In this document: positions 14,286 to 50,716 of the stretch, one piece after another
How the letters are laid out: every line of letters starts with the position of its first letter
Position numbering within the stretch: the first letter of the stretch is position 1
Source: an uncultured Candidatus Saccharibacteria bacterium
Lineage (GTDB): Bacteria; Patescibacteriota; Minisyncoccia; UBA6257; 2-01-FULL-56-20
Direction of reading: 5' to 3'
Assembly: GCA_964365185.1 (NCBI GenBank)
Contig: CAYIOP010000001.1
Span: 112,673 to 176,672 of the forward strand
DNA length: 64,000 bases
Notes under the pieces: generated by a model
Database searches by the model: none
What the model saw: only the letters and a program-made list of their open reading frames with translations
Told to the model about the DNA's origin: nothing
Translations under genes and position numbers: made by a program

Positions 14286-14578
14286 GAGGAATTTTTAGTA
14301 ATTGGGAAGGAGAATTGGCCATGGAGGGATCTTTTCCGTGGGGTCTGGTAATGATAAATTTCGGAGTGGCCCTAGGATTTCTTACTTTAGGGTTGGCTGC
14401 GCCGCTTAAGTACGTGAGAAGTCTTAAAATCATCGTGCCTATTGCGGTGATTGCGCTGGTTCTAATGATTTGGGGAGGATTAAACCTCAAGCCACCAAAA
14501 AAAGAACAGAAGCCGCAAGAAACTGGGGCCTCAAGCAATATCGCTTGGGGCTTTTTTTATTTTCCCCGTAGGAAATAG
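14282..14578 (+). CDS. Small membrane protein
   Basis: 98 aa with three TM helices, translationally coupled to the previous ORF. Confidence 0.4.
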   Translation: MRGIFSNWEGELAMEGSFPWGLVMINFGVALGFLTLGLAAPLKYVRSLKIIVPIAVIALVLMIWGGLNLKPPKKEQKPQETGASSNIAWGFFYFPRRK

Positions 14579-14692
14579 CGAAAAAAATGTAAAATATTTT
14601 TGAACTAAAAAGGAATCTTTGAACAAAAAATTAGAGCTAATTTTTAGAACTGGGGAATAATAAAGACGAAAAATATTTTATTTCCTACGGGG
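14564..14692. repeat. Inverted-repeat element pair of the CCCCGTAGGAAAT...AAAATATTTTTGA family: long arm 14564-14605, short inverted arm 14668-14692
   Basis: Eight copies in the window: 14564-14605, 14668-14692, 21168-21215, 21273-21300, 25636-25683, 38125-38167, 49923-49965, 50028-50056. Confidence 0.7.
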
Positions 14693-14774
14693 TTTACACA
14701 ACATTCTCACATTCTTCCGCCTTCGTCCCACTTAGCGGGACTACGGTCGGACAAGTCAGAATATTAGAATGCGC

Positions 14775-15236
14775 TTACATCGTTGGTTTTTTGTAGAAAT
14801 CCGGGTCAATGACGCGGTCAAAGCAGGTTCGGCCGGCAGTATGTTGCCAATTGTCGCTCCCTGTGGGGATTGGTTTCTCGTAGACCATTGGACGAGCAAC
14901 ATTGTCTAAATTTGGTCCGGGGCCAGAGGTGGAAAAAATGGCGCAGAGGGTAAATTCCAGTTCCGCTTTGACCAGATATTCATATTCGGCTCCGGTTTCC
15001 GGATCAACCGGAATAATCACGCCTCGAGTGGAATCAATTAAGTCAGCCAATTTTTCCGGTAGCTGACCCTTGGCTTGCCAATAAGTGATAATCTGCCACT
15101 CAATATTTTGTAAATCCGAGATTCGGAGATCATCTAATTTTCTTAGCCGCTCTTCCTGCGGCGTGCCGAGAATGAAAAATCCGGCGATAATAGCGGCGGC
15201 GACAATGGCAATGATTAGATAAGTGAAATAGCGCAT
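14775..15236 (-). CDS. Hypothetical TM-anchored protein
   Basis: 153-aa ORF with an N-terminal TM helix. Confidence 0.5.
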   Translation of the reverse strand: MRYFTYLIIAIVAAAIIAGFFILGTPQEERLRKLDDLRISDLQNIEWQIITYWQAKGQLPEKLADLIDSTRGVIIPVDPETGAEYEYLVKAELEFTLCAIFSTSGPGPNLDNVARPMVYEKPIPTGSDNWQHTAGRTCFDRVIDPDFYKKPTM

Positions 15237-15266
15237 GTGAATTTCTAATTGTTCTAATTAACCTAA

Positions 15267-15857
15267 TTATTCTATTTCGACTTTGTGTTTTTTAATATCA
15301 GTGAGGTAATAACCAAAAACCGAACTAGCCACAAAGCCGACAGTTAAGACCTTAAGGATAAAACGCAAAGTGAGTTCGCCTTCCAAAAAACTTTTAACCA
15401 GGACAACCAAGTCCACGATGATGATAATGGCGGCCACAAAAAGCGTAAAATAAAGCAACCATTTTCTGATTTTTAAATTAAGTTTCTCTGGATTTTTTAT
15501 ATAGTCCTTATTTAGATACCAATTGAGCCAGACATAAATCGGAAAGATGACGAGCAACGTGGCAAGGGCGCCCCGGCCGAAACCGCGAGCGCGATCAAAA
15601 ACATAGGGGTCATTTAATATGTCTGGCAAAAAGATATTGATATATTGGAAAATTAGAGTGATGAAAGAAATGGCGCTCGCGTAGAGCGTGACAATGCTCA
15701 AAAGCTGGATAAAAAAATCTTTGGGGGAGGTTTTGATTTTGACGAGTTGGTTATCCATTACTTTGAATCTAACATAATAATTTGGCAAAAGCAATAAAAA
15801 ATGGCCTCCAAGTGGGGGCCAAAGTTTTTGTAGGGAGTGGACGGATATGTCAGGCAA
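15267..15857 (-). CDS. Hypothetical polytopic membrane protein
   Basis: 196-aa ORF with four TM helices. The start may be the internal Met at about 15761. Confidence 0.45.
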   Translation of the reverse strand: MPDISVHSLQKLWPPLGGHFLLLLPNYYVRFKVMDNQLVKIKTSPKDFFIQLLSIVTLYASAISFITLIFQYINIFLPDILNDPYVFDRARGFGRGALATLLVIFPIYVWLNWYLNKDYIKNPEKLNLKIRKWLLYFTLFVAAIIIIVDLVVLVKSFLEGELTLRFILKVLTVGFVASSVFGYYLTDIKKHKVEIE

Positions 15858-16205
15858 GGACGTAGGACCTGACCAACAGTGTTTGATGACGCTGACTACT
15901 ACTGTCGTCCACTTGCCCTACTTTGTGAAAAAGGAGCCAGGACTAAGATTAGAGCTAAGAAGGGGGGACAAACTCAACTCCGTGTTTCCCAATCCTGGCT
16001 TTTTGCTTGTCTCTTAGGCAAGTTGTTGCCTAAGTATAACGACGTAATCTGGACCATCACAAACATCGTGGTGGCTAGATACGAAAACATCCGTGTTTTC
16101 ATCTTTGATCTCCTATATCAAAAGCTGAGTATATTATAGGCGGTGATTATTATTTTGTCAACTCCAAGTCATGAAGTATATAACATGTAGCATGAAACAT
16201 TTAAT

Positions 16206-17516
16206 TCATAGAATTTTGCCACGAAGTCGGCGGTGGTAGGCAATGGCAAATCTGTGGGCTTCGTCACGGATTTGGATAAGGGTTTTGGGTTCAATGCCAG
16301 CTGGCATTTTGCCGATAAGTTCGTTTTTCTTGCGCTCTGGGCCTTTAGCTAAACCAATGACCGGCATAAATAAGTTAAGTTTGTTTAGAACTGATTTGGC
16401 CGCGTTTACCTGTCCCCTACCACCGTCGATTAAAATTAAATCTGGGTGCGGCCAGTTGTTTTTAAAACGGCGAGTTAAAATTTCTTTAATCATAGCAGTG
16501 TCATCTTGACCTTGAACCGCTCGAATTTTGAATTTGCGATATTCGTTTTTATCGGGCCGAAAAGTGTTTCCTCCAAAGGCGGATCCTCCTTTGGAGGAAA
16601 AAACCACCATTCCACCCACTGCGGCGGTGCCGGAAATTTGAGAGATGTCGTACCCCTCAATACGTTGTTTAGGGTTTAGCCAATAGCCACTAGGGTTTAG
16701 GGAATTATTCTCCTTGATGAGGGCGATGTCGTTGATGTGCTTGAGGCCAAAGATTTGGCGGCGGATTTTTTCTGCTTTTTCAAATTCCAGCTTTTCGCTT
16801 AGTTGTTTCATCTCTGCCTCAAGGTTGCGAATAACTCTGGATTTTTTGCCGGCTAGAAAAAGTTTGAGGTTATGAATGATTTTTTTATATTCAGTTTCAC
16901 TTATCGCGTCCACGCAGACACCCGGGCAATTACCAATTTGAAAATCAAAGCAGGGACGGCTGACGCCTACATGATGTGAATCTGCTAATCTATGCAAATG
17001 CCGCAAATTGCGAATAGTTCGTTTTTTTAATTCTTCTTCGGAGTGAGTGTTCCATGGGAAAATTTGGCGAATGAGTTTTAATGATTCACGGACATCTCGG
17101 GCAGAGAGAAAGGGACCGTAGATTTGGCTGTATTTCCCTTTTTCCCCGGCAATGTCTTTGCCACGAGTTAGAACGAGGCGGGGAAATTTTTCTCCGCCTT
17201 TGGCGGAGGTAATCGCAAAATATATGAAACTTCGGTCGTCTTTTTCTAAGACATTGTAGAGCGGCTGATGTTTTTTGATGAGCTCTGATTCTAAAATCAG
17301 CGCCTCAAGCGCGGTGTCAGCTTTTTTGAAATCAATTTTTTTGACTTGAGAAATGAGTTTTTCAATTCGGTAGTCGTGGCTTTTCTGAAAATAACTTGAA
17401 ACGCGGCGCTTTAGATTGCCGGCTTTGCCGATATAGAGAATTTTCCCGTTCGTGTTTTTCATCAAGTAAACGCCGGGAGTGTCGGGAAGTTTTTGGTAGA
17501 GAGTGGTTTTAGTCAT
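16206..17516 (-). CDS. uvrC: Excinuclease ABC subunit C. Short form of 436 aa with no C-terminal (HhH)2 domain
   Basis: GIY-YIG N-domain (YLMKNTNGKILYIGKAGNLKRRVSSYF), a Cys-rich UvrBC region, and an RNaseH-like endonuclease domain ending IRDEAHRFAIAYHRRLR. Confidence 0.85.
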   Translation of the reverse strand: MTKTTLYQKLPDTPGVYLMKNTNGKILYIGKAGNLKRRVSSYFQKSHDYRIEKLISQVKKIDFKKADTALEALILESELIKKHQPLYNVLEKDDRSFIYFAITSAKGGEKFPRLVLTRGKDIAGEKGKYSQIYGPFLSARDVRESLKLIRQIFPWNTHSEEELKKRTIRNLRHLHRLADSHHVGVSRPCFDFQIGNCPGVCVDAISETEYKKIIHNLKLFLAGKKSRVIRNLEAEMKQLSEKLEFEKAEKIRRQIFGLKHINDIALIKENNSLNPSGYWLNPKQRIEGYDISQISGTAAVGGMVVFSSKGGSAFGGNTFRPDKNEYRKFKIRAVQGQDDTAMIKEILTRRFKNNWPHPDLILIDGGRGQVNAAKSVLNKLNLFMPVIGLAKGPERKKNELIGKMPAGIEPKTLIQIRDEAHRFAIAYHRRLRGKIL

Positions 17517-17521
17517 CGCTC

Positions 17522-17551
17522 TTTACAATAATAGATAAAATTCGCTATAAT
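17522..17551 (+). promoter_or_regulatory. Sigma70-like promoter for the 17589 ORF
   Basis: TTTACA, 18-nt spacer, TATAAT, with an AAGGAGAG SD ahead of the ATG. Confidence 0.5.
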
Positions 17552-17588
17552 GACAAATAGTAAATTTAGTTAACAATAAGGAGAGTTT

Positions 17589-17846
17589 ATGCATCTTGGA
17601 GAAATAGAAGTGATCATGGTTCCAATTCATGGATTAATGGCTGTTTACGCTCAATCAGGAGTAAGGGCAACTATCGAAGAGGAATCAGAGGCACTACGAA
17701 TTTTTGCTGGATCAGGAAAACCAATAGCGCCCCGAGGTGATGCATTGAACGGAGCGTTGAAAGAATTCTGGCGAAATCGCCCTCCGAAACCAGTAAATCA
17801 GGATGAGCTTCAGATTTTCTTGCGTGGGAATAGCCCTTCTCACTGA
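17589..17846 (+). CDS. Hypothetical protein
   Basis: 85-aa ORF with promoter, SD, and the bidirectional terminator at 17866-17900 (GAAAACCGTTTCAG...CTGAAACGGTTTTTT). Confidence 0.5.
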   Translation: MHLGEIEVIMVPIHGLMAVYAQSGVRATIEEESEALRIFAGSGKPIAPRGDALNGALKEFWRNRPPKPVNQDELQIFLRGNSPSH

Positions 17847-17917
17847 CTCAACTATGGCGAGAATCGAAAACCGTTTCAGCAATTACTGAAACGGTTTTTT
17901 CATACTCGAAGTAGTAT

Positions 17918-18127
17918 TTATGTATGAGCTTCCGGGCTTTTCATGCAGCAATCCTTAACCATCTTGCCAGATCCGCAGGAACACATTTCATTTTCGATTT
18001 CGGCGGCTTTATCTTTACCACAGCAGGCGTAAAACATTTTTCCCGAACCACAGGGACAGGCGTTCATCAGAACGCTCATTTTTTGTTTAACTGTTTCTTG
18101 ATCCATATTTTTAAATTGTCCCGCCAA
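17918..18127 (-). CDS. SEC-C motif (YecA-like) small metal-binding protein
   Basis: Two CPCGSGK..CCGK-type SEC-C motifs in 69 aa. Confidence 0.55.
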   Translation of the reverse strand: MAGQFKNMDQETVKQKMSVLMNACPCGSGKMFYACCGKDKAAEIENEMCSCGSGKMVKDCCMKSPEAHT

Positions 18128-18214
18128 GGCGGGATTTGTTCATATATTGTTCGCGACCTTTTTGAGTAAACCGGAGTTCTAATTTAACACGTTTTCTTAA
18201 TTATAACAAATTCT

Positions 18215-20746
18215 TTAGCGGAGAACCTTGCGGAGATATTGCCCTGTGAAACTACCGGCTTTGCGGGCAATTTCTTCGGGGGTGCCCACTGCCACGATTT
18301 TGCCGCCAGCCACTCCCCCTTCGGGCCCTAAATCAATTACCCAGTCCGCGGTTTTGATGACATCTAAATTATGTTCAATAATTAAAACGGTATTGCCTCT
18401 ATCAACCAACTTTTCTAAAACCTTAAGCAGATTTTCGACATCGGCAAAATGCAGGCCAGTGGTGGGTTCGTCGAGTAGATAAAGTGTTTTTCTAGTGTCG
18501 CGTTTGCCGAGTTCGGCTCCGAGTTTGATTCTTTGGGCTTCGCCACCAGAAAGCGTAGTCGAAGATTGGCCGAGTTCAAGATAACCCAAACCAACTTCTT
18601 CTAAAATTTTTAACTTGTCATGCAGATGGGGAATTTCTTCAAAAAACTTGGTGGCTTCCTCGATGGTCATTTTAAGGATATCGTGGATACTTTTGTTTTT
18701 ATATTCAACTTCTAGTGTCTCCCGATCAAATCTTTTGCCTTTGCAAATGTCGCACTGGACATAAACCGTGGGCAGGAAATGCATTTCGATAGCGATGGTG
18801 CCATGGCCTTCGCAGTTTTCACAGCGGCCGCCGGGCCGGTTAAAACTGAAGCGGCCAATTTTGTATCCGCGAAAGCGCGCTTCTTCGGTTGAAGCAAAAA
18901 GTTCGCGGATAAAAGTCCAGGCACCAACATAAGTGGCGGGATTAGAGCGCGGCGTGCGGCCAATGGCGGATTGGTCAATATTAATTAGACGATTCAGATA
19001 TTCATTGCCCATCACATTTTTACAGCCAAAATCCCGATAATGAGTGCCGCCATAGCGGCCGGAGAGAGCTTTAAAAATTACGTCATACATGAGCGAGCTT
19101 TTGCCCGAACCAGAAACACCGGTAATGCAAGTCATCCGGCTAAGCGGAATATCCACATCTAGATTTTGAAGATTGTTGGCAAAGGCACCGCGGATTTTTA
19201 AGGCGGGTTTGTCTTTGGAAATCTGGCGCCTTTCTTCCGGAACTTCAATAAATTTTTTGCCGCCGAGGTAGTCCAGAGTTAGTGATTCTTTATTTAAAGA
19301 GCGGCTCTTGGGAGATAAAATTTCCGGAATCGGACCTTGAGCAATAATTCGGCCGCCGTGTATGCCCGCGCCTGGGCCAATGTCAACCAGATAGTCGGAC
19401 TCGCGGATGGTTTCTTCGTCGTGTTCAACCACAATAATGGTGTTACCCAAATCCCTTAATTCGTGGAGAGTTTGGATAAGTTTGGCGTTGTCACGTTGAT
19501 GTAGGCCGATTGTGGGTTCATCTAGAATATATAAAGTGCCGACTAGTCGTGAGCCAATTTGCGAGGCGAGGCGAATGCGCTGGGACTCGCCGCCAGAGAG
19601 CGTGCCGGCTTTTCTGTCTAAAGTGAGATATTCGAGGCCAACGTCAATCATGAACTCCAATCGATTACGGATTTCTTTTAACGGAACTTGGGCGACTTCC
19701 AGGAATTTTTTATCTTTAATAGTTTCGAGGGTGCCGATAAAATCATAAGCATCAGCAATGGAAAGATTAGTGACGTTGAAAATATTTTTATTTTTGAGAG
19801 TCACGCTTAGGGCTTCTTCTTTGAGACGTTTGCCAAGACACTTGGGACAGGGTTTATCGCTCCAGACGCTTTCGGTGCCTAAGCCGTGGCATTCCTCACA
19901 AGCGCCATAAGGACTATTAAACGAGAATAGTCGTGGCTCGATTTCCGGAAAGGAAAAACCATCATTGGGGCAGGCGAATTTTGAAGATAAGTGAGTTTCG
20001 GTTTTACCATGGAGAATAGTGACTAGATCGTGGCCGTGTTTTAGAGCTGATTCAACCGCTTCGGCGATGCGCAAGCGATTATCTTTATTTCTTAAATCAA
20101 GAGTAGTCGGAATCCGATCAATTACTAATTCGATAGTGTGTTGTTGGTAGCGGCTAAGTTCAATGCGATTTTTTAAGGATTGAAATTTGCCGTCCAAGCG
20201 GACTTCGCGAAAACCGGTATTTAGAAAATCGTAGAGAAGTTGGTAGTACTCGCCTTTTCGGCCCCGCACTATAGGGGCGAGAATAATTAACTCTTTATCA
20301 TTTTTTGATGACTTAGCGATTTCAGTAACGGCATCAACAATTTGTTCGGTGGTTAATTTTTTAATTTCGTGGCCACACTTGGGACAAAAAGGTTTGCCCA
20401 CGCGCGCAAAAAGAACCCTTAGATAATCGTAGATTTCAGTGATGGTGGCCACAGTTGAGCGAGGATTGCTGGAATGGCTTTTCTGGTCAATTGAAATGGC
20501 TGGAGAGAGACCTTCGATTTCATCCACATCGGGCTTGTCTAAGCGGCCCAAAAATTGGCGAGCATAGGCCGAGAGAGATTCGATGTAGCGGCGCTGGCCT
20601 TCGGCGAAAATCGTGTCAAAAGCCAAACTGGATTTGCCGGAACCAGAGAGTCCGGTAAAGACAATCATTTTGTCGCGCGGAAGCTCGAGGTTAATGTTCT
20701 TAAGATTATGCTCGCGAGCGCCTTTGATAATGATTTTGTCTTTCAT
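18215..20746 (-). CDS. uvrA: Excinuclease ABC subunit A (843 aa; insertion domain absent)
   Basis: Two ABC ATPase modules ([15 protein letters not shown].., [15 protein letters not shown]..), zinc fingers, and the UvrB-binding region. The roughly 110-aa insertion domain between the Zn-finger cysteines is missing: [11 protein letters not shown]...CPKCLGKR are adjacent. Confidence 0.9.
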
Positions 20747-20797
20747 AAAAATGTAATGCTAATCTACAAATTTCATCCGAATGCTGCGAATGATTGC

Positions 20798-20827
20798 GTC
20801 CTCCGAAGGAGGATCCTCCTTTGGAGG
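20798..20827. repeat. 30-nt GGAGG double-hairpin palindrome TCCTCCGAAGGAGGA+TCCTCCTTTGGAGGA, upstream of uvrA
   Basis: Two adjacent 6-bp-stem hairpins that are mutually complementary. Family members at 13880-13909, 16569-16598, 23530-23559 and 42136-42165. Confidence 0.7.
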
Positions 20828-20913
20828 AAATGTTGCGAATTTATTTGGATTTGACATTTTTAGGGTTGTGGTGTATGCTTTGAGTAGTTAATTAAATTAA
20901 GTTTGGAGGAGCT

Positions 20914-21069
20914 ATGAAAGTTTTGGCAGTATTACTGGGACTCGGGATGCTAGTATTCGGAATTTTGGTAATGGCCTTCGGTAAGCCCGAAGAAGGTCTA
21001 TGTGGCTTTTTCTTTATCTGCGGAGCCATTATTTATTTTCGCGAGCTCTCGGTTATGAGATCAATATAA
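20914..21069 (+). CDS. Small membrane peptide (51 aa)
   Basis: GGAGGAG SD 6 nt before the ATG, two TM helices. Terminator at 21096-21130 (CCAGTGA...TCACTGG followed by T7). Confidence 0.35.
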   Translation: MKVLAVLLGLGMLVFGILVMAFGKPEEGLCGFFFICGAIIYFRELSVMRSI

Positions 21070-21450
21070 GAATTCACCGCGAAAATTCTATGGATCCAGT
21101 GATGAATTTCACTGGGTCTTTTTTTATTTTTGTTAATACGCGAAATAGGCCCGGGGTTGGGGTCTATCCCCCGTAGGAAATGAAGAGAAAATCCGGTATT
21201 TTCTCTTCTGAAATAAACTTTGTTTTAAATTAAGTTTATTTTGACAAAAAGAAGTCGAGGTTATTAGTCGCAGAAAATACCCGATTTCCTACGGGGTAGA
21301 GGGTGTATCAAATGAAGTTTAGAGTGAAAAACGAAAAGTGTAAAGTAGATAACGTAATACTAATCTACGAATGGCGTGCGAATGATACGAATAATTTAGC
21401 GATTGATTGAATTATTGTAATGTTCTAGTTGCTATAAATACTAAAGCGGA

Positions 21451-23493: not shown

Positions 23494-23616
23494 TTTTAAA
23501 AGCGTAATACTAATATACAAATATGTGTGTCCTCCGAAGGAGGATCCTCTCTTGGAGAAAATGATACAAATAATGTAATCAACTAGAAGCGGATAAACGC
23601 GGATTGAAAATTGCCC

Positions 23617-23644: not shown

Positions 23645-23686
23645 ATATTACAGAAACTACTACAACAATTTTTTGCGGAGGAGAAA

Positions 23687-24672: not shown

Positions 24673-25557
24673 TCAATCGCCTTTTTCGAATTCGTTGTGA
24701 CTGGTATCTGTCGATGTGGGAATTGATAGTTCGGAAGTTCGGCATTTTTCGTTAAATCTATTTATGAGTTCTGAATCATTTTCAGTAATCCGGTTTACGG
24801 TTTTCTCGCCTTTTTTCAATATTTCCAGCCAGGAATTACAAAATGAGGTTTTGGATTCCAAAGGATAGTTTTTTGACTCAATGAAATTGCTTCCACTTAC
24901 TTCTTCTTTATTCTCTTTTCTATTATCTTCTTCCTCTCCATCTGATTTCTCTTTATTCTCGATTGCACTTGATGCTCCAAAAGATTGAAGTGAAGGCGGA
25001 GAATCATCTTTTTTGTTTTTCTTTTTCTCTTTTTTATCCTCACTTTTTTTGTTAGCGGCGTCTTTTTGAATTTTAAGCTGGCTTTCGGATTCTTTTTTGA
25101 TTTTAGATTCGGTCTCAACTTTTTCAAAGGCGCCCAGAGAATTTTCTATTTCTTGCTCAAAATCCTCGGATAGGTCGGAGATTTTTGGACTCTCCGGATT
25201 CCCTTCCTGAATGGATTTTATTTCCTCAAGGCGACGTTCAGCTAATTCCAAATGTCGAGTTGGTTTTTCTTCGTTTTTGGTGAACGCGGTTTTCACTGCT
25301 TCTTGAGCGCGTTTAAGAGAATAAAAAATATTGTTGGGGCCAACGTTGGTTTCATCCGCGTAAGTGGCCGCACTAGTCAAAAGAATCATAACGGCTACAC
25401 CCGCGCTAACTCCACGAATAAAATATTTAAAAGCTGGCGAAGGCCCGCTTTTTGCAATACCAAATTTCCCTTGAGCCGCCGATAGAAAAAGCAGCTTGGT
25501 TTTTTCTTTAAATTCTTTATTGGGTTTGTAAAAGTTTTTAAAATTCATATCCCGCAA
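24673..25557 (-). CDS. Putative anti-sigma factor / membrane protein with a K/E-rich low-complexity region
   Basis: Immediately downstream of the ECF sigma gene. Short cytoplasmic N-terminus, one TM helix, and a low-complexity extracytoplasmic region. Confidence 0.35.
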   Translation of the reverse strand: MRDMNFKNFYKPNKEFKEKTKLLFLSAAQGKFGIAKSGPSPAFKYFIRGVSAGVAVMILLTSAATYADETNVGPNNIFYSLKRAQEAVKTAFTKNEEKPTRHLELAERRLEEIKSIQEGNPESPKISDLSEDFEQEIENSLGAFEKVETESKIKKESESQLKIQKDAANKKSEDKKEKKKNKKDDSPPSLQSFGASSAIENKEKSDGEEEDNRKENKEEVSGSNFIESKNYPLESKTSFCNSWLEILKKGEKTVNRITENDSELINRFNEKCRTSELSIPTSTDTSHNEFEKGD

Positions 25558-25684
25558 GAAATTAAATATTTTTTGTTTTTTCGGCGTCTAATTTCATAAA
25601 TTAGTGATATCTTTTGATGCTGAGATTAGTTATTTGAGCTCAAAAATATTTTATATTTTATCGCTATTTCTTACGGGACATGTT

Positions 25685-37906: not shown

Positions 37907-38184
37907 ACCCCGGAGGAAATTACCTGCCCGCCGAACAAACCGAAATTTCGGCGTTAAGACTAATGATTAAGACCTTTATCTTTATTTTAGTGTAAAACAT
38001 TGTCATTGACAGATATATTTAAAATTTCGGTCGGCTTTGGCAGGCGGGAATATTTTTTTGTTAATTCATATACGACTTTTTTATATTACTTTACTCTATT
38101 GCAATGCCCTCCTAAATTAGATTAGCTCAAAAATATTTTATTTTCTCACTATTTCCTACGGGGCATGATAATAAAAATCAATCT

Positions 38185-42113: not shown

Positions 42114-42135
42114 GGCCCTATCGTCTAATGGCTAG
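42114..42135 (+). repeat. 22-nt duplicate of the 5' end of tRNA-Glu (GGCCCTATCGTCTAATGGCTAG)
   Basis: Exact copy of tRNA positions 1-22 (42427-42448). The GIY-YIG gene lies between this copy and the intact tRNA. Confidence 0.85.
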
Positions 42136-42181
42136 CCCTCCGGAGGAGGGTCCTCCTTCGGAGGAGACGCACAAAGATGAA

Positions 42182-42710: not shown

Positions 42711-42736
42711 GACATTTTAATTATATATGCTAGAAT
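42709..42736 (+). promoter_or_regulatory. Sigma70-like promoter for the 42838 ORF
   Basis: TTGACA, 16-nt spacer, TAGAAT. SD GGAGGTG ahead of the ATG. Confidence 0.5.
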
Positions 42737-42837
42737 ATAATTAGTAATTCCTATTTGTATGAGTAGGTCGTTCCCTGTGGAATAAGGGTAAAGTCCTGAC
42801 CTTATAGGATTTAACAATTTTTTATTGGAGGTGTTGT

Positions 42838-43107
42838 ATGACACAACTTTTGCAGATTAATGGGGGGCCGTCCAAATTCGATTTAATGATTTCTTTGTTT
42901 GGCGAAGGAAGGATGTCAGTCTTATTTAGCGGAGTTTCGAATGAATCGGGAAAGTTTTCGGAGGATGTTTATATAACTTCCCTTGAGAAAGAAAGTGGAG
43001 ATGGAGAAAGCTGGAACTTCCGAGGTTACGCCAGCGGAAATAGGAAAGTTGAAGGGTTTTTTTCAACTCTTCATCGAACCGGCCACATAAAATTTGTAGA
43101 GGAGTAG
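42838..43107 (+). CDS. Hypothetical protein
   Basis: 89-aa ORF with promoter, SD, and a strong terminator at 43128-43167. Confidence 0.5.
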   Translation: MTQLLQINGGPSKFDLMISLFGEGRMSVLFSGVSNESGKFSEDVYITSLEKESGDGESWNFRGYASGNRKVEGFFSTLHRTGHIKFVEE

Positions 43108-43178
43108 AGCTAAGACCTCATTGTAGAGTCGCCCGACAGGCAAACCTGTCGGGCGATATTTTTTTAAAATATTTATAT

Positions 43179-43754
43179 TCACAAAACCGATTTTACGATT
43201 TCAACGTAAATTCTAGCGTTTTCTTCGGCTCTCTCTTCGCCGGAAAAATGGCCCTTGTCTTCATATGTTATAAGTTCCGCGTCTAGTTCGCTGGCGATTT
43301 GAACTCCTTGTTCATAAGGAATAGAATCATCGTCTTTAGAATGTAGCACAAGAAATTTATTGGCTAATTTTTTTATTTTTTCGATATCCAGCGCATAGTC
43401 GAAAAAATCCGAATAATTTTCATTTTTTCTTTTACGATTTTCGCGATAATCATTGTTAAAGGCGGCGATTAAAATGACGGCATCAACTTTTTGATTGTAT
43501 TTATCTAAATACAAAAGAGCGGTTCGGGTGCCTAAACTATGACCAACCAAAACCACCGGTTTATCTGAATTTTTTACTTCTCGGTCGACAATTTCCAACC
43601 ACTCTTGACTATGAGGATTTTCGCCGCCTGGGAGAGCTGGAATGGAATAATCGACACCTAAATCGGTTAAGGTTTTAGCTATAATCTGCCATTTCCTTTT
43701 TTTGGGCGACGTTGGCAACGAATTGTAGCCGTGAATAAAAATAACTTTTTTCAT
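43179..43754 (-). CDS. Alpha/beta-fold serine hydrolase (YdeN/RBBP9-like)
   Basis: GHSLG nucleophile elbow (VVLVGHSLGTRTAL), about 190 aa. Confidence 0.6.
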   Translation of the reverse strand: MKKVIFIHGYNSLPTSPKKRKWQIIAKTLTDLGVDYSIPALPGGENPHSQEWLEIVDREVKNSDKPVVLVGHSLGTRTALLYLDKYNQKVDAVILIAAFNNDYRENRKRKNENYSDFFDYALDIEKIKKLANKFLVLHSKDDDSIPYEQGVQIASELDAELITYEDKGHFSGEERAEENARIYVEIVKSVL

Positions 43755-43801
43755 TTTAAAATTAGTGGGGACGATTTGAGTCGTCCCCTTTTTTGAATTT
43801 C

Positions 43802-43981
43802 CTAGTCGTGTCTGAATGGACTTTTGCTATGCGGGCCGCGATGGACCAGTGGTTTGACTTGGATTGTTTGGCCGCACTCTGGACACTTCAGTTGCGCCGG
43901 AAAAGTTGAATCTTCTGTTTTATGAAGTAGTTGCTGGTAGCCGCAAGTACAGGAAATTTGATGAGTATATTCGGGGAACAA
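43802..43981 (-). CDS. Possible small zinc-ribbon protein (TTG start, about 60 aa)
   Basis: GGAGGT SD 7 nt before a TTG. Translation contains CTCGY...CPECG. Not in the ATG-only ORF list. Confidence 0.25.
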   Translation of the reverse strand: MFPEYTHQISCTCGYQQLLHKTEDSTFPAQLKCPECGQTIQVKPLVHRGPHSKSPFRHD

Positions 43982-44054
43982 TTTTACCTCCGTATTTTAA
44001 ATTGCGATGTTTTTTCTGATTAAAGTATAACATAAAGAGTTTTGATTTAAAAGA

Positions 44055-45335
44055 TCAATTTTCGCCTAAATTTTGAAGGTCGAATTCTTTTAGAACTTGG
44101 ATTTCTTGCACGATTTCATTCATCCGCATTACGTGCGAGCCCTTTACCAAAATCAAATCCCCTTTTTTTAGCAAACTTTCAACTGGTTTTTTGGCTTCAT
44201 CCACATCATTAAACTCATAAAGATTACTTTTTTTGAAGCCATTTTTTAAGGCGGACTCGGCAATAGATTTTGCAGCCCGGCCCACGGTAACTAGAATATC
44301 CGCCACGCCTACGGCCAGACGGCCAATTTCCTCGTGCGCTTCTAATGTATACGAACCAATTTCAGTCATGTCGCCCAAGACCGCGATTTTTCTTTTACCA
44401 GGCAATTCCAACAAAGTATCGAGGGCCGCGTGCATTGATAAGGGACTGGCGTTATAGCTGTCGTCTAAAATGTAAGTTTCTTTCTGGCCTTCGATCAGCC
44501 GCATTCGGCCTTCGACCGGCTGATAATTTTTTAGGGCTTCGGAGATGCGAATTAAATTTAGACCAAAGACCAAACCAACACAGGCGGCGGTCGCGGCCGC
44601 ATAACCTTGAGCTTTTCCGAAGACGCCGTTGATTTTAACCGGCACCATACTGCCGCCGTATTCAAGTTTAAAATTAATGCCCAAGGGTTTTAATCCTTCG
44701 GAGCGAACAGTAAAATTAGTGATTCTTACATCCGCCCCTCGGCCAAAACCAAAGGTCATCACGTTTCCCCGAGTACGGTCTTTAAGCGCCATCACGGTTT
44801 CGTCGTCGTAATTTAAAATAGCAAAACCGGAAACCGGCAAGAATTCTATGAGCCGTCCTTTTTCTCGAGCCAACTCTTCGGGCCCGGCGAAAAACTCAAC
44901 GTGAACCGGGATCTCGCCGATCGCGGTGATAATCGAGATATTCGGCCTGGCAATTGATAAAAGATATTTCATATCGCCGGGTTTATCCACGGCGTACTCC
45001 AAAATTAAAAGTTCTGGATAGAGGCGACGGAACGCCAGAAAACTTTTAATAATTTGAATCGTGGCGGAGAGAATAACTTTCGGCCAAAAAAACAGCCCTT
45101 TTATTTCCGGCCACTCCCCTAAAATAGTCAGCGGCAGGCCAATTTCATTATTAAAGTTTTTCTTGGCAAAGCGTAAATGACGATCGCTGCCCAAGACCGC
45201 GGCCACGGCCGCTTTGGTTGAGGTTTTGCCAACGCTGCCTGTAATGCCAATAATGCCCGGTCGCGCCCGCCAAATCATCAATTTAGCCAGTTGTTTTAAA
45301 ATGCGCTTGAGGATATTTCTGAATTGATCTTTCAT
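44055..45335 (-). CDS. murF: UDP-MurNAc-tripeptide--D-Ala-D-Ala ligase (MurF-like Mur ligase with a very short N-terminal domain)
   Basis: P-loop GITGSVGKTSTK about 30 aa from the start, and the MurF-type NNEIGLPLT motif. Lies in the dcw cluster after ftsI. Confidence 0.7.
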   Translation of the reverse strand: MKDQFRNILKRILKQLAKLMIWRARPGIIGITGSVGKTSTKAAVAAVLGSDRHLRFAKKNFNNEIGLPLTILGEWPEIKGLFFWPKVILSATIQIIKSFLAFRRLYPELLILEYAVDKPGDMKYLLSIARPNISIITAIGEIPVHVEFFAGPEELAREKGRLIEFLPVSGFAILNYDDETVMALKDRTRGNVMTFGFGRGADVRITNFTVRSEGLKPLGINFKLEYGGSMVPVKINGVFGKAQGYAAATAACVGLVFGLNLIRISEALKNYQPVEGRMRLIEGQKETYILDDSYNASPLSMHAALDTLLELPGKRKIAVLGDMTEIGSYTLEAHEEIGRLAVGVADILVTVGRAAKSIAESALKNGFKKSNLYEFNDVDEAKKPVESLLKKGDLILVKGSHVMRMNEIVQEIQVLKEFDLQNLGEN

Positions 45336-46984
45336 AAATCATTATTAACACTGGATTCTAGGCGATCCGGAGGAAGATTATAGTAAGTTAAAATAAATTG
45401 CGCGAGTTCCCGAAAAGCCGGAACAACTGTGGTGCCGGCTAGGGGCGCGCCTTTGGGATCGTCAAGTTTGATTAAAATCACGAATTTAGAATTGTTGGTT
45501 GGGCCGAAACCGATATAGGTGTTGATAACTTTGTCGGTGTAGCCGCCATTTTCAAAATCGGGAATCTGAGCAGTGCCGGTTTTGCCGGCTAAGGCGTAGC
45601 TTTTGATTTGACCGATTTCGGCTTTATCTAACGCCGAGACCATCATGGTTGTCACTTCTTTAGCAGATTTTTCGCTAATAACCCGGCGAATTTCCTTTGA
45701 CCCAAGTTCAGAGTTTAGATAAGGACGCAGCAAGCGGCCACCATTAGCGATAGCCGAGAAAGCGTTGATTAATTCGAGAGGTGTGATTGCCACACCTTGG
45801 CCAAAAGAAGCGGTGGCAAAAGCCACTTCCGGAGCTCTCTCTTTTAGACGATTCAAATTACCACCTAATTCGCCGGGCAAATCAGCGCCGGTTTTTTCGC
45901 TGAACCCAAATTTTTCCAAGTAGTTTCTAAAAATTGAATGACCAGTGGCTTTTTCAGCAAAAGCGGCGCCGGTGTTGATTGATTTTTCAAGCACATTAGT
46001 CATTGTAACCCGACCGTGAGCTTTCAAGTCCCAATTTTTTATTTCACGGCCGCTGACTTTTAAAATACCAGTGTCGTTAAAAGCGGTCTCGGGAGTAATT
46101 TTTCCGGAATCAATGCCCGCGGCCATAGTGATAACTTTAAAAACCGAGCCGGGTTCATAAATAGCTTGGACTGATGGATTTAAAAATGATTCTAAAGTAA
46201 ATTTTCCGTATTCATTCGGATTAAAACTTGGCTGGCTCTCCATGGCTAAAATTTTTCCGGTTTGCGGCTCCTGGACAATAATCGTGCCGCCTTTGGCTTC
46301 TTGTTTAGTGATTAAAGAATCCAAAATCTTCTGAGCTTCTTTTTGAATATTAGAGTCGATGGTTAAAATTAAATCTTTGCCAGCTTTGCCTTCGGTGATT
46401 TTGCCATCTTCACCATTCCCTTCTTGGCCAGATAAAGTTTTTTCGTAAAAGCGCTCAAGCCCATATTGGCCAACTTCACCTTCGGAATCTTCGCTCGATG
46501 CGGTAAATCCTAAAACATGGGACATTAAAGAATTAAAAGGATAAAGCCGATCGGTTTCAAAAGTAGTGTAGATGCCTTTAATCTTTAAATTATTAACTCG
46601 GATAATTAATTCAGCTGGAGCTTTTTTGATTAAGAGTTGATATAGGTTATCTGATTTGGAAAGTTTTTTTTCAAGCTCTTCCACTGATATATCTAAAATC
46701 GGCGTTAACTGATGTGCTGTTTCTTTATAGTCCTCAATTTCTTTCGGAACTGCGTAGATGACCGGAAAATCTCGATTTAAAACAACGGCCAGGGTTTTGT
46801 TTTTTTTGTCAGTAAAAAAAATTTTGCCCCTAAGGGCTTTAAATAATCCGGAGGCGGCATATTGGGACTCGGCTCGAGCCCGATAATTTTGGTTGTCGGA
46901 AATTTGAATCTGATAAAGCTTAAAAATCAAAAATGAATAAACGATAATAAAAATCGAAATAATTGTAATAAATCGGAATTTCAT
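45332..46984 (-). CDS. ftsI: Peptidoglycan D,D-transpeptidase (PBP2/FtsI class B PBP)
   Basis: N-terminal TM, then SXXK (GSVFK), SXN (KSINTG) and KTGT (GKTGTAQ) motifs. Confidence 0.9.
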   Translation of the reverse strand: MKFRFITIISIFIIVYSFLIFKLYQIQISDNQNYRARAESQYAASGLFKALRGKIFFTDKKNKTLAVVLNRDFPVIYAVPKEIEDYKETAHQLTPILDISVEELEKKLSKSDNLYQLLIKKAPAELIIRVNNLKIKGIYTTFETDRLYPFNSLMSHVLGFTASSEDSEGEVGQYGLERFYEKTLSGQEGNGEDGKITEGKAGKDLILTIDSNIQKEAQKILDSLITKQEAKGGTIIVQEPQTGKILAMESQPSFNPNEYGKFTLESFLNPSVQAIYEPGSVFKVITMAAGIDSGKITPETAFNDTGILKVSGREIKNWDLKAHGRVTMTNVLEKSINTGAAFAEKATGHSIFRNYLEKFGFSEKTGADLPGELGGNLNRLKERAPEVAFATASFGQGVAITPLELINAFSAIANGGRLLRPYLNSELGSKEIRRVISEKSAKEVTTMMVSALDKAEIGQIKSYALAGKTGTAQIPDFENGGYTDKVINTYIGFGPTNNSKFVILIKLDDPKGAPLAGTTVVPAFRELAQFILTYYNLPPDRLESSVNNDL

Positions 46985-46989
46985 TTCAC

Positions 46990-47316
46990 TTACCTAAAAT
47001 TGGCGCTTAGAATTATTGATTCTTGCGATGTTGATTCGAAATAAGACGGACTTTTTTCGGATATTAGGCCTTTTTCGGCAATAAAGATTTTAACCTCGTC
47101 ACTATTTAAAATCGAAAAGACCGCTTCTTTAATCTCAGCCACCTTGGCTTGTTCCCTCTCAATTTCGTTGTTAATGCCGGAAATATCGTGTTTTAAGCTA
47201 ACAACTTGATTGTACATAACAACCAAAAAGAAAATGCCAATAATTATCCCCAACCCCATAGCAAGATAAATAAAATCAAGGGTTTTTCGTTCTTTTTTGG
47301 GTTCGAGGAAAGTCAT
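46990..47316 (-). CDS. ftsL: FtsL-like cell division protein
   Basis: Small bitopic protein with a TM and coiled coil, sitting between rsmH and ftsI. Confidence 0.45.
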   Translation of the reverse strand: MTFLEPKKERKTLDFIYLAMGLGIIIGIFFLVVMYNQVVSLKHDISGINNEIEREQAKVAEIKEAVFSILNSDEVKIFIAEKGLISEKSPSYFESTSQESIILSANFR

Positions 47317-47356
47317 TTTAATTAGTATTTAAGATTTAGGATTTAGGGTTCGGCAT

Positions 47357-48256
47357 TTAGATAATTTGGATGGCTCGAAGTTTGGCGGAGTGGCTTCGAA
47401 AATTTAGTTTGATTTCTTTTTCTTCGGGTGTAATTGGTTTTTTTGTTAAAATTTTTCCTTTGTTCTCCTTCTCTATTTTTTGAAAATATTTTTTTATTAA
47501 AGCGTCTTCTAAAGAATGAAAGCTGATGATGATTGCCCGACCACCTATATTTAAAACATCACCGAGGCGAGATAAAATTTTTTCCAGATTTTCAAGTTCA
47601 CTGTTTGCGTAAATTCTTAAGGCCTGAAAAGTTCTGGTGGCGGGATCGATTCGACTTTTGTTCCGGCCGCTGCCTCGTTCATAACTTTTGGGAAGCGCCT
47701 GACGAATAATGTTGGCTAGTTCTGAGCTAGAAATAATTCGACTATTACGACTGCTTTTTTTGATGGCTCTTGCAATAGCTCGTGAATATCTTTCTCCGCT
47801 AAATTTAAAAATGATGTCGGCGAGGTCTTGTTCTTTTAGTTCGCGAATGATTTCGGCCACTGGTTTCTGTTTCGAGGAATAAGTCATGAAAAGCGGTTCG
47901 TCGTGCGTGAAACTGAACCCTCGATTGGAATTCTCGATTTGCTCGGAAGAAAATCCCAGGTCCAGGAGCAAGCCGTCGGCTTTGCTTAATTTTTTCTCTT
48001 TTAGAATTTCCGGAATCTCGGCGTAGTTGCCGGAGATTAAAATTACTTTGGAATTACGACTGACAATTTTTTCTTTGGCTCTTGCGATTAAACTTTCATC
48101 CCAATCAATTCCCAAAAGAGTGCCGTGTGGTGAAATTTTTTCCAAAATTTCCTTCGCGTGTCCGCCGCCATTCACTGTTCCATCGATAACGAAACTGCCT
48201 GGTTTGGGATCGAGATATTCGACGACTTCTTTTAAAAGAACCGGTTGGTGGGACAT
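47357..48256 (-). CDS. rsmH: 16S rRNA (cytosine1402-N4)-methyltransferase
   Basis: MSHQPVLLKEVVEYL...DGTVNGGGHA, the RsmH/MraW signature. Confidence 0.9.
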   Translation of the reverse strand: MSHQPVLLKEVVEYLDPKPGSFVIDGTVNGGGHAKEILEKISPHGTLLGIDWDESLIARAKEKIVSRNSKVILISGNYAEIPEILKEKKLSKADGLLLDLGFSSEQIENSNRGFSFTHDEPLFMTYSSKQKPVAEIIRELKEQDLADIIFKFSGERYSRAIARAIKKSSRNSRIISSSELANIIRQALPKSYERGSGRNKSRIDPATRTFQALRIYANSELENLEKILSRLGDVLNIGGRAIIISFHSLEDALIKKYFQKIEKENKGKILTKKPITPEEKEIKLNFRSHSAKLRAIQII

Positions 48257-48331
48257 GAATTATGTAGCATGTAACATGTAGTAATAAGCAGGGTGAATTT
48301 GTGTTATATGTTATATGTTTCGTGCTATGTG

Positions 48332-48763
48332 TTATATGCCCAGCTCCCCTAACTTCTCCGCTATCTCATCGGACGAACCTTCGGTCTTGGATTTATACTT
48401 TTCCCATCGCTCTGTATCCCAGACCTCAATTCGATTCATAAGTCCGGTTACAACCACTTGCTTAGAGAGACCGGCGTATTTTCTTAAATAATCAGGAACT
48501 AAAATTCTGCCTTGCGAATCAACCTCAACATCCATCGCTCCGGAGAGCATCAACCGAACAAAAGCGCGAGAGTTCGCTTGAGCTAAGGGAAGAGCCACTA
48601 ATTTTTGCGCGAGTACTTCCCATTCTTTGTTAGTAAAAATAAATAAACAGTTATCAAGCCCGCGAGTGATGATGGCGCCGGATTTTAATTCTTCGCGGAA
48701 TTTCGCCGGAATCGCCATTCGACCTTTGATATCTAAATTGTGTTTAAATTCTCCAAGTAGCAT
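48332..48763 (-). CDS. mraZ: Transcriptional regulator MraZ
   Basis: FKHNLDIKGRMAIPAKFR and a second DxxGR(I/V)xxP repeat. Confidence 0.9.
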   Translation of the reverse strand: MLLGEFKHNLDIKGRMAIPAKFREELKSGAIITRGLDNCLFIFTNKEWEVLAQKLVALPLAQANSRAFVRLMLSGAMDVEVDSQGRILVPDYLRKYAGLSKQVVVTGLMNRIEVWDTERWEKYKSKTEGSSDEIAEKLGELGI

Positions 48764-49015
48764 CGGTTCGTTATTGGTTATTAGTTGATGGTTATTAGTT
48801 ATTAGTCAGCCCCAGGTTCTAGCCATTAGCCACTAGAGAGAAGGTTGCCCTCACAACAAACTTCTTTTTCTCTAATGACTACTGGTTAGATCCCGGAAAA
48901 AGTTCTGCACAGAAAGTGCCAGTTATCCCCAATTTCATCCACAATTCCCCACTTCCGTTTAATAATAAGCCACTTTTGCAGTTTGTCAAAACAGCGACTT
49001 ATGACTCTAGAAATA

Positions 49016-49044
49016 AAAAGGCCCTTTATTTTAAAGGCCTTTTA
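49016..49044. terminator. Bidirectional intrinsic terminator
   Basis: AAAAGGCC-loop-GGCCTTTT. Confidence 0.65.
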
Positions 49045-49098
49045 GCCAGAAGCTAAAAAAATATCCACAAGTTATCCTGTAGGGCGAGAAAATAGGAT

Positions 49099-49440
49099 TT
49101 AGGATTCAGAATTTAGGATTTCGTCGATTTTAGCGGCTAAAATAAAGTCGTTTTCAGATAAACCACCAATCGCATGCGTCCAAAGTTCAACTTTGACTTT
49201 GCCGTATGTAAGGAAAATATCTGGATGATGATTTTCGCTCTCAGCAATTTCTCCGATTTTGTTTACAAAACTTAGCGCTTCTTTGAAATTCTTGAATTTG
49301 AAATCCGCGTAAATTCTTTTTGGTTCAAGCTGCCAATTTGAAGAAACTTGTTGCAATAATTTTTTTGACTCTTCAATGGTTAAGGGCGGCACTCCCCCTT
49401 CGCAAGGAACACATTTTTTCTGGAATAGTTTTATTATCAT
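49099..49440 (-). CDS. Pterin-4a-carbinolamine dehydratase
   Basis: EGGVPPLTIEESKKLL...ENHHPDIFLTYGKVKVELWTHAIGGLSENDF, with the PCD [EDKH]xHP signature. Confidence 0.8.
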   Translation of the reverse strand: MIIKLFQKKCVPCEGGVPPLTIEESKKLLQQVSSNWQLEPKRIYADFKFKNFKEALSFVNKIGEIAESENHHPDIFLTYGKVKVELWTHAIGGLSENDFILAAKIDEILNSES

Positions 49441-49506
49441 TTTATTTTAGTTTACCCCAAATCAAAAACCGCGCAAGCGGCGGTTTTTGATTTATTTTAT
49501 TCTCCA

Positions 49507-49887
49507 CTATTTAAACCACTCTTTAAAGCTCTTTGGCCAACCTAAGAGAAAAAGGAGGGCGAGAGGCGCGCTCCAATTGGCGAAGCGTTCAATAAAATCC
49601 CAAATTGGCAAACCAACGAGGGGTCGAACGAGAGCCGTCCAAAATCCCCAGAAGGCTGCCCAAAGAAGAAAAATGCGAATTGGTTTGGTAAGAACAATAA
49701 TGGCTACAAGAATATCGAAGAGGCCAACTAGCGTCAGAAGAGTGGCTGAAGTATCGGCGTTCGCGCCAGTTAGCTGACCGACCCATTTAATCCAATCCGC
49801 CTTGCCCTGAAGAGCAAAGACACCGTGACCCAAAAACTCACCAGCCACACCAATCTTCAGAATCCACTCGATAGTTTTAGAATTCAT
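49507..49887 (-). CDS. DoxX-family membrane protein
   Basis: 126 aa with four TM helices. DoxX-like layout. Confidence 0.5.
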   Translation of the reverse strand: MNSKTIEWILKIGVAGEFLGHGVFALQGKADWIKWVGQLTGANADTSATLLTLVGLFDILVAIIVLTKPIRIFLLWAAFWGFWTALVRPLVGLPIWDFIERFANWSAPLALLFLLGWPKSFKEWFK

Positions 49888-50044
49888 TTTAGATTTTCAC
49901 TTGCGACCTTTTACTAATTATACCCCGTAGGAAATGATGAGAAAATAGTTAAATATTTTTGAATCAATAAAACTTTAAACTAAATGTGTTGTTCACTAAA
50001 AAAATAGGCAAGACGAGTAAGAGTGATTGAAAATATTTTATTTC

Positions 50045-50716
50045 CTACGGGGTAGACCAGTTTTGATACCACTCGCGCATCTGATTAATTTCAGCGGTTT
50101 GCGCCTGGATAATATCTTGAGCGAGTTTTTTAATCTCATCGCGATTGGAAGAAACTGCCATCATCTGGGCCATCATTACGGCCATTTGATGATGAGGAAT
50201 CATCTGTCGGATAAACTCGGCGTCAAAATCTTTAGCGCTCCCCAATGCTTCAAGATCCGTCTGGTCGCCCATCATGCCGCCCATCATTATGCCGGGCGAG
50301 TGATTCATCATCGAGTGGCCAAGATAGGTGACCGAATCAGGAACATCCGAGCCGTACCAATTTTTATACCAGCTTCGCATTTCATTAATTTCCTGGGTTT
50401 GAGCGACAATAATCATTTGAGATAGAGTTTTAATTTCAACTCTTTTGGATTTTTGAAGCGCGAGATTAGCCATGACAATCGCGTCTTCGTGGTGCGGAAT
50501 CATCTGCTCAATGAAGTGGCGATCTAGATCATTCATTGGATTACGATTGCCTCCCATCATATTATTCTGATTGCCACCGCCCATCATGTAGTTGTTCATC
50601 ATGTTCGGATACCGGGAATTTAAACCAACAGAAGCCAGCGATGGAAAAACATTAACTAGGACAACACCAACTAATATGCCGACGATTACGTAAATATAAT
50701 TGTTATTATTTTGCAT
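50045..50716 (-). CDS. DUF305 domain protein with a Met/Asn/Gly-rich region
   Basis: Two DUF305 repeats (MIPHHEDAIVMA..; MIPHHQMAVMMA..) and an MMNNYMMGGGNQNNMMGGNRNPM segment. Confidence 0.7.
   Translation of the reverse strand: MQNNNNYIYVIVGILVGVVLVNVFPSLASVGLNSRYPNMMNNYMMGGGNQNNMMGGNRNPMNDLDRHFIEQMIPHHEDAIVMANLALQKSKRVEIKTLSQMIIVAQTQEINEMRSWYKNWYGSDVPDSVTYLGHSMMNHSPGIMMGGMMGDQTDLEALGSAKDFDAEFIRQMIPHHQMAVMMAQMMAVSSNRDEIKKLAQDIIQAQTAEINQMREWYQNWSTP

Follow-up and report, generated by a model that had tools for sequence, protein, structure and literature searches.

Miniature inverted-repeat elements of groundwater and sediment Patescibacteria and their polar association with start codons

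Correia elements of Neisseria (CREE/NEMIS) are non-coding repeats of ~100-150 bp with inverted ends and a short target duplication that are abundant between genes, often lie 5' of a gene and are co-transcribed with it. Their ends are 26 bp long, the duplicated target is TA and their promoters are partly built with the duplicated TA. They are the closest analogue of the family described here, which was found in a 64-kb stretch of contig CAYIOP010000001.1 from an uncultured Candidatus Saccharibacteria bacterium (positions 112,673 to 176,672; this whole stretch is called the window) and which differs from them by unrelated ends of 13 bp, a 4-bp YATR duplication and a host among the Patescibacteria (candidate phyla radiation, CPR). 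Very probably, these elements are MITEs (miniature inverted-repeat transposable elements), that is non-autonomous DNA transposons, forming a mobile family widespread in groundwater and sediment Patescibacteria, and the short arm of one subfamily, type A, would let the genes that it adjoins at their start stay expressed. We know of no description of Correia elements at a fixed 0-1 nt from a start codon with the ATG inside the duplication. The polar association of a MITE family with the start codons of essential genes, in a host that looks leaderless and poor in Shine-Dalgarno (SD) sequences, is unreported.

Functional outward promoters and RNA-level hairpins have been reported for Correia elements, and the REP2 elements of Neisseria as well as the IR modules of Borrelia bring a promoter along with ribosome-binding site and ATG directly upstream of open reading frames (ORFs), with internal stem-loops near the 5' end (PMC3184786). 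REP2, which carries its own ribosome-binding site and ATG, lacks terminal inverted repeats, whereas in the present family the ATG is that of the target gene, duplicated by the insertion, no SD sequence is brought in and mobility is shown directly. The REP/REPIN-RAYT systems are similar in being long-lived and very diverse populations of short palindromes, with GTAG in one end and a hairpin that is specific to one strand. However, REPINs rely on a Y1 transposase present in single copy and do not duplicate their target, while 4-bp duplications and true inverted ends are found here. Literature searches found no description of the motif or of MITEs in Patescibacteria, and nothing specific on leaderless CPR genes.

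Target duplications and mobility of the family

A metagenome collection was scanned with a paired-end pattern of exact 13-nt ends, which gave 99 loci from the Hainich aquifer and from contigs of several other sequencing projects, with 87 distinct units. The contigs that bear them come from groundwater and sediment metagenomes. Further elements were found in at least three genome loci (L075, L100 and L117), from metagenome-assembled genomes (MAGs) submitted as Candidatus Saccharibacteria, among the matches listed by a genome scan whose pattern, a bare 13-mer with a loose tail, gave at least 120 matches, almost all due to chance. Perfect 4-bp direct repeats flank 54 of the 85 distinct units with readable flanks and 16 more units match at three of four positions. 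In the controls, shifted offsets gave 0-2 of 85 and other repeat lengths 0-3 of 85, except for 16 at 2 bp. The repeats vary between copies, and 31 of the 54 perfect duplications fit the palindromic YATR (TATG/CATA in 19, TATA in 10 and CATG in 2). The MITE-like nature that the original prediction, drawn by a model from the letters of the window, had given to the family is thus borne out by target-site duplications.

Nested insertions behave in the same way, as removal of the inner element together with one repeat leaves the exact consensus of the outer one (CGAG in L138, TTTG in L143 and CATA in L203). Moreover, three loci whose flanks are unrelated have the same 125-bp copy, identical in sequence, and a fourth locus has a 95% copy, which points to recent mobility.

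The units are 119-146 bp long, mostly 125-131 bp, and they have conserved ends and subterminal arms but interiors that can hardly be aligned. At least two subfamilies have common ends and different subterminal sequences. Type A carries a long arm with a hairpin at one end and, at the other, the short arm ACGGAAAATATTTA beside the terminal repeat; type B carries AAAGCGTTTGCCGTCAAAG at one end and CAACGCTTTTCCGGCA at the other. In both, each end has a subterminal repeat in addition to the 13-bp terminal repeat, with uneven spacing at the two ends, 1 versus ~14 nt in type A and 1 versus ~8 nt in type B. No coding capacity was found, the frame entered from the upstream ATG copy (the only one translated) being closed by stops and no Pfam-bearing ORF lying inside. 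Rfam (15) gave no match at the gathering score in the window and none at E<=1 on four element-bearing loci, and ARAGORN called no transfer RNA-like shape within elements.

In the window, CCCCGTAGGAAAT has eight matches (seven exact and one with one mismatch) for 0.11 expected, and none of 100 shuffles reached eight. The motif family of the original prediction is therefore real, with positions and arms as given there, save that the copy placed at 21168 starts at 21169. Its eight copies are eight arms, which make up five complete elements, and a covariance model made from related units gives those five and nothing else in the window. The long arms at 25636 and 38125, held to be unpaired, both have a partner, within 25550-25678 and 37908-38163 respectively. 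The model separates the strands clearly. The five elements are as follows:

Element 1, 14564..14692, plus strand: A-type, 129 bp, ends at 14564-14576 and 14680-14692; 100 bits, in the training set of the model.
Element 2, 21169..21296, plus strand: A-like variant, 128 bp, perfect 13-bp ends; 78.4 bits, outside the training set.
Element 3, 25550..25678, minus strand: A-type, 129 bp, variant ends; 89.7 bits, outside the training set.
Element 4, 37908..38163, minus strand: composite of 256 bp with an A-type core of 130 bp (37908-37922 and 38049-38163), found by the covariance model.
Element 5, 49923..50052, plus strand: A-type, 130 bp; 92.9 bits, in the training set.

All five are A-type or A-like and together they make up ~1.2% of the stretch. 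The inverted 13-bp ends are perfect in three copies and near-perfect in two; in the units at 14564, 21169 and 49923, of 128-130 bp, the 13-mer and its reverse complement stand at the ends, 102-104 nt apart. Recent activity had been deduced from the 90% identity of the arms at 25636 and 38125. Whole elements of the window are 58-72% identical in pairs, and the likeness of these arms is the conservation seen throughout the family, so that the deduction does not hold here.

Element 1, with its hairpin arm on the left and its short arm on the right (flanks TTTT/TTTA, three of four matching), sits between convergent genes beyond the terminator-like hairpin of two small plus-strand genes. Element 2 lies between the uvrB stop and the region upstream of uvrA; its hairpin is GAAGAGAAAAT-CCGG-TATTTTCTCTTC, its flanks are TATC/TAGA (two of four), and other samples yielded contigs of this organism that carry the copy too (L001, L002). 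Element 3 is the copy that had been placed between an ECF sigma gene and its anti-sigma gene (DUF5667). It stands exactly at the anti-sigma start codon, its short arm ending at 25550 and the ATG occupying 25548-25546, with the sigma stop directly upstream. Its ends TCCCGTAAGAAAT and ATTTCTTGCGGGA (variant listed as TCCCGYAAGAAAT) share the same two changes, and its flanks are CATG/TATG. In element 4, the left end CCCCGGAGGAAAT at 37908 pairs with the arm at 38163, the flanks are again CATG/TATG and 1 nt separates the end of the short arm from the start codon of murB (ATG 37906-37904). Element 5 (flanks TATA/TAGA, three of four) holds in its right end the TAG stop of a DUF305 gene (50045-50047), and on a reading of the flanks the original stop of this gene would be two codons further. 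Its left end adjoins a minus-strand TATAAT box, 29 nt upstream of the ATG of a gene of 126 residues. The claim that all copies are intergenic was nearly right, but the DUF305 stop lies in element 5, and for two copies the distance from their end to a start codon is 1 nt.

Three relatives whose UvrA is 80-85% identical keep the gene order (ECF sigma, anti-sigma, FKBP, uvrB, uvrA, uvrC, DUF5671) and have no element in 67.8 kb of syntenic DNA. The gap between the sigma and anti-sigma genes is 0-27 nt in the relatives versus 128 nt in the window, and an empty site was found in L229, which reads ...ATAAACATGAATTT where the window reads ...TAAAACATG[129 bp]TATGAATTTT. Copies of the family lie at variable sites, as proposed. 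At the ligA locus, L132 and L164 have one more tandem copy than L167.

Type A units and the start codon

Type A is polar with respect to genes; neither this polarity and the placement at start codons nor the nested insertions and the second, nested family appear in the original prediction. Of 57 A-type units, 27 have their short arm 0-1 nt from the ATG with which a long ORF starts, and none has its long arm there (27:0, two-sided binomial p ~1.5e-8 by arithmetic), while ~12% of non-coding YATR sites contain a start codon when both orientations are counted. More broadly, the short arm faces the 5' end of a gene in 43 of 52 units and the long arm the 3' end in 34 of 46. Type B was observed at start codons at the baseline rate (2 of 18) and has no clear polarity. 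Within the window, elements 3 (anti-sigma gene) and 4 (murB) keep the start-codon rule and elements 1, 2 and 5 lie between gene ends. In the start-adjacent units the duplication is mostly YATG, and it thus includes the start codon. Because the preferred targets include YATG, start codons are often hit by insertions, and the duplication regenerates them.

Twenty downstream genes were scanned, of which 17 have a Pfam match. They include gyrB, grpE, rpsQ, rpsP, frr, a class I Trp/Tyr transfer RNA synthetase, secD, ATP synthase subunit a, signal peptidase, uppP, mraY, yqeY and hpf, and no functional theme was seen among the 20. Several of the genes downstream of elements are essential, for example gyrB, rpsQ, rpsP, frr, the class I Trp/Tyr synthetase and murB. 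Most N-termini align with the start of the Pfam profile, and the abutted ATGs can therefore be taken as real start codons.

Window proteins were found by exact look-up in Hainich aquifer metagenomes (0.1 µm filter fraction), and the nearest named UvrA homologues belong to MAGs of Patescibacteria, Parcubacteria and Candidatus Liptonbacteria. Among 47 window genes, a TATAAT-like hexamer lies exactly 6 nt 5' of the ATG in 7-10, where -10-like hexamers peak, and almost no SD-like tetramer precedes the genes. On account of this peak and of the near absence of SD-like motifs, host genes, in the window as in loci L123-L221, look mostly leaderless and SD-poor. GGAGG-type sites are present at two small plus-strand membrane-protein genes (14053-14285 and ~14322-14540). 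At many insertion sites the native -10 box is still present 6-9 nt upstream of the duplicated ATG, past the long arm, and this is why many targets are regarded as leaderless genes. Other targets, such as rpsQ and grpE, are operon-internal.

Type A is also strand-specific in its own sequence. The hairpin of the long arm, which was studied by direct parsing as MAFFT misaligned it, is built from a foot of 3 bp, an internal GA/GA loop and a stem rich in A and T. In the 28 fully paired cases, 15 different triplet pairs with compensation were counted for the foot, and G-T and G-C serve as closing pair 11 times each. Folding is better on the sense (top) strand in 43 cases versus 12 for the antisense strand (p=1.4e-6). 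In the interior, A prevails on the sense strand (42% A versus 25% T; the skew is positive for 45 of 49 units), whereas the interior of type B is symmetric in composition. Of 28 start-adjacent copies, 21 have kept ATATTTA ahead of the end, versus 10 of 29 others (p=0.003), and together with the terminal repeat this heptamer forms TTTAAT/TAATTT. The -10-like TAATTT, consistently placed in 38 of 49 units, ends 9 nt from the element end and 10 nt before the ATG. The terminal 13-bp stem is stable (z-scores -3.8 to -7.3), and RNAalifold on 33 A-type units gives this stem only, with no conserved interior RNA fold.

The element probably supplies or permits gene-start signals, and its short-arm half would in this manner let the downstream gene stay expressed in leaderless, SD-poor hosts. 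TAATTT may act as a weak outward promoter, giving a leader of 2-6 nt. The A-rich, unstructured leader may also allow SD-independent initiation on read-through RNA, or a ribonuclease may cut at the foot of the terminal stem and remake a leaderless messenger RNA. Copies inserted at start codons in the opposite orientation would be lost by selection. Two other routes were ruled out, namely translation through the element as an N-terminal extension, as every copy has in-frame stops, and termination-reinitiation from an upstream ORF at the TAA of the short arm, as element lengths follow no mod-3 constraint.

Mobilisation, selection and alternative explanations

From the 4-bp duplication we infer that the units would be moved by a cut-and-paste type transposase, supplied in trans and making 4-bp staggered cuts at YATR-like targets. 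Duplications of 4 bp are made by IS1380, the IS5 group, IS701 and ISH3, and the IS1380/piggyBac type, which has a DDE transposase, combines duplications of 4-5 bp with ends starting with CC. The family resembles the IS1380/piggyBac type by its 4-bp duplication of an AT-rich palindromic target, its CC start and its unequal subterminal spacing, as in piggyBac. This is a lead only, as the end sequence is not known to match IS1380, the IS5 group, IS701, ISH3 or piggyBac and no such transposase was found near the elements. Arm pairs 300-6000 bp apart were not found in the loci; ORFs beside solo arms, as well as multi-copy ORF clusters, are all housekeeping. Viral contigs gave no match to the paired ends or to the 22-nt short arm and a plasmid collection gave no blastn match. 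Finally, the Pfam-annotated neighbourhoods of the window and of three relatives, whose genomes were not searched in full, contain no transposase and no Y1_Tnp.

The first alternatives concern mobility itself. That the units are fixed cis-regulatory modules of particular genes, such as paired operators or promoter cassettes, inherited and not mobile, would fit with the high conservation of ends and arms, the many copies directly upstream of genes and the presence of an element at tmk in two organisms (L134 and L162, and also L198, from a replicate sample of the L162 site). This reading has next to no probability, given syntenic relatives devoid of elements, target duplications and nested insertions, identical copies at unrelated loci and downstream genes with no common functional theme. 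Conserved syntenic regulation, which the original prediction had named as the finding that would overturn it, was itself ruled out by syntenic absence, empty sites and duplications. Another possibility is that a Y1 transposase (RAYT/TnpA) moves the units in single-stranded form, as hairpin elements akin to REP/REPIN or derived from IS200/IS605. The hallmark of REP sequences is a GTAG followed by a strand-specific hairpin, which the end of the present units has, and inverted pairs with very diverse interiors recall long-lived REPIN populations. IS200/IS605 elements make no target duplication, as Y1 transposition makes none, and have no terminal inverted repeats. The TnpA/TnpB partner that had been suggested is thus disfavoured by the variable 4-bp duplications, seen also as duplicated targets in nested insertions, and by ends that are true 13-bp inverted repeats. 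A Y1_Tnp gene was not found in any of the annotated neighbourhoods, and mobilisation of this kind is very improbable.

A mobile MITE family being preferred, it remains to explain why type A stands at start codons, and selection on A-specific sequence is favoured over targeted insertion because type B, which has identical ends, has not accumulated there. The opposite view, which we consider quite unlikely, is that the insertion machinery sets the placement, the transposase being led in a fixed orientation to the starts of leaderless genes. The guide might for example be DNA opened by RNA polymerase at +1, and the element would then have no expression function, an idea of the same low standing. 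It would account for a duplication that spans -1 to +3 of leaderless genes, for the dominance of offset 1 (23 of 33 ORF starts within 11 nt of an element end), for the 27:0 orientation and for the three identical, hence recent, copies that all point their short arm toward a gene. However, type B has the same ends, and presumably the same enzyme, with no start-codon enrichment or polarity; the palindromic YATR target is as expected from a symmetric complex; many A-type copies lie elsewhere, some within other elements; and selection on the element is indicated by its A-rich sense strand, by the strand specificity of its hairpin and by a short arm that start-adjacent copies keep better. Type A could also be primarily an RNA-level device, in which a host ribonuclease reads the 13-bp stem and the hairpin on a native or operon transcript and cuts at the 3' foot to leave a leaderless messenger RNA that starts at or beside the AUG. 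We give this little credence, although the terminal stem folds stably, the hairpin contains G-U pairs and tandem GA and is specific to one strand, the ATG follows the stem by 0-1 nt, the hosts look leaderless and several targets are operon-internal (rpsQ, grpE), so that a promoter alone is not obviously enough. On the other side, the only fold returned by RNAalifold is the terminal stem, whose invariance is owed to the way in which the loci were collected, no Rfam or transfer RNA-like match was obtained, and type B has the same stem yet is not tolerated at start codons. A more far-reaching version, doubtful if conceivable, would make type A a transposon specialised for the first codon of leaderless genes, inserting or surviving only at -1 to +3. 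Its strand-specific module (stem, GA/GA hairpin and A-rich leader) would then, with as much doubt, make the element harmless by restarting transcription a few nucleotides ahead of the AUG or by being clipped by a host ribonuclease so that the messenger RNA is leaderless again, and the mobilising enzyme, not seen in ~0.7 Mb of CPR DNA rich in elements, could, in a guess that is hardly safer, be an undescribed or host-external transposase. If true, this would be a new mode of coexistence between a mobile element and a minimal genome, and a natural, portable gene-start cassette for organisms without SD initiation.

Several points weigh against a mobile family whose short arm keeps genes expressed. 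Neither the window and its extensions nor ~0.7 Mb of related loci gave an autonomous element or a transposase with these ends. In the window, none of the five copies has a perfect 4-bp duplication (2-3 of 4 positions match), and these imperfect duplications together with the low mutual identity mean that the copies are old in this genome. The invariance of the 13-nt ends across the metagenome loci is a product of the exact-match search, and the genes in these loci are simple ORF calls. As for expression, no consistent full sigma-70 promoter was found in the element, the best scores being equal on both strands, and the stretch directly ahead of the ATG would be masked, in an RNA that reads through, by the 13-bp terminal stem.

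CPR/Patescibacteria genomes are tiny and are regarded as poor in mobile DNA. The present units form a MITE family in groundwater and sediment CPR metagenomes from several projects. The tolerance, in one orientation only, of a 128-bp insert 0-1 nt before the start codon of essential genes makes the element informative on transcription and translation starts in uncultured CPR, its copies being dozens of natural 'promoter/leader swap' experiments that can be read in existing metatranscriptomes. In addition, the copies are markers for strain-level population genetics, and such repeats account for some of the contig breaks and of the miscalled gene starts in CPR MAGs.

Nested family and other repeats of the window

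Element 4 owes its length to an element of a second family, which is given here with its position:

Nested element, 37923..38048, strand not assigned: second family (CCTGCCCGCCGAAC...GGCAGGCGGG), 126 bp, which interrupts the short arm of element 4 at GGAAATTA^AATATTTT, without a duplication.

The second family was also found in L138, L142, L151 and L164, with ends CCTGCCCGCCGAACAAACCGAAATTT... and ...GGCTTTGGCAGGCGGG and always at the same position of the short arm. Either it is a parasite that is site-specific for the first family, or this is a composite subfamily that moves as one. In parallel, mini-elements of 26-29 nt made of the two ends and a 3-nt spacer were observed in L138 and L164 (CCCCGGAGAAACttgTTTCTACGGGG) and in L151 at 2486-2514 (CCCCGTTAGAAATcatATTTCTAACGGGG). 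A 26-nt mini-element that consists of the two ends alone has a 4-bp duplication, CCCG, and its removal restores the host element. Related families with the variant ends CCCCGTTAGAAAT and CCCGTTAGAAG... were also seen, as well as one in L143 at ~530-680 (TCCCGTTAGAAGCCGCGATCG...). The mini-elements and the variant-end families suggest a superfamily with the end consensus CCCGTnnGAA.

The terminal repeat of all elements includes CCCGTAGGA, which we take to be the core of the universal 16S probe EUB338 (GCTGCCTCCCGTAGGAGT), so that the left end would be complementary to 16S ribosomal RNA at ~340-348. This match is probably a coincidence.

Several other repeats are present in the window. A double palindrome of ~30 bp, TCCTCCGAAGGAGGATCCTCCTTTGGAGGA, has five copies (13876-13921, 16565-16610, 20795-20840, 23526-23571 and 42132-42177). 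Copies directly precede uvrA and uvrB and stand where a GIY-YIG gene starts, and one lies in or near uvrC. A lexA homologue (LexA_DNA_bind and Peptidase_S24) is encoded at 61970-62608. The palindrome, which corresponds to the uvr leader module of the original prediction, looks like the SOS operator of this lineage. Beside lexA, at 59961-61953, a restriction-modification-like pair combines an Eco57I-type methylase/endonuclease domain and a Tsp45I-family protein.

A repeat of ~90 nt occurs at 14693-14775, right after element 1, and at 59456-59540. The two copies are 80% identical overall and 94% in the first 34 nt, and the repeat has an internal inverted pair, ACATTCTCACATTCT / AGAATATTAGAATG. 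Short tandem-like runs of AGGATTT/AGAATTT/AGGTTTT (for example AGGATTTAGAATACAGAATTTAGAATTAAGGG) were observed at gene ends, at 1595, 13078, 22010, 24592, 28728, 41069, 47330, 48771 and 49087. Finally, a 37-nt inverted repeat (58634-58670 and 58944-58980) has arms that are 89% complementary and 273 nt apart, and the stretch 58634-58980 coincides with overlapping ORFs on both strands.

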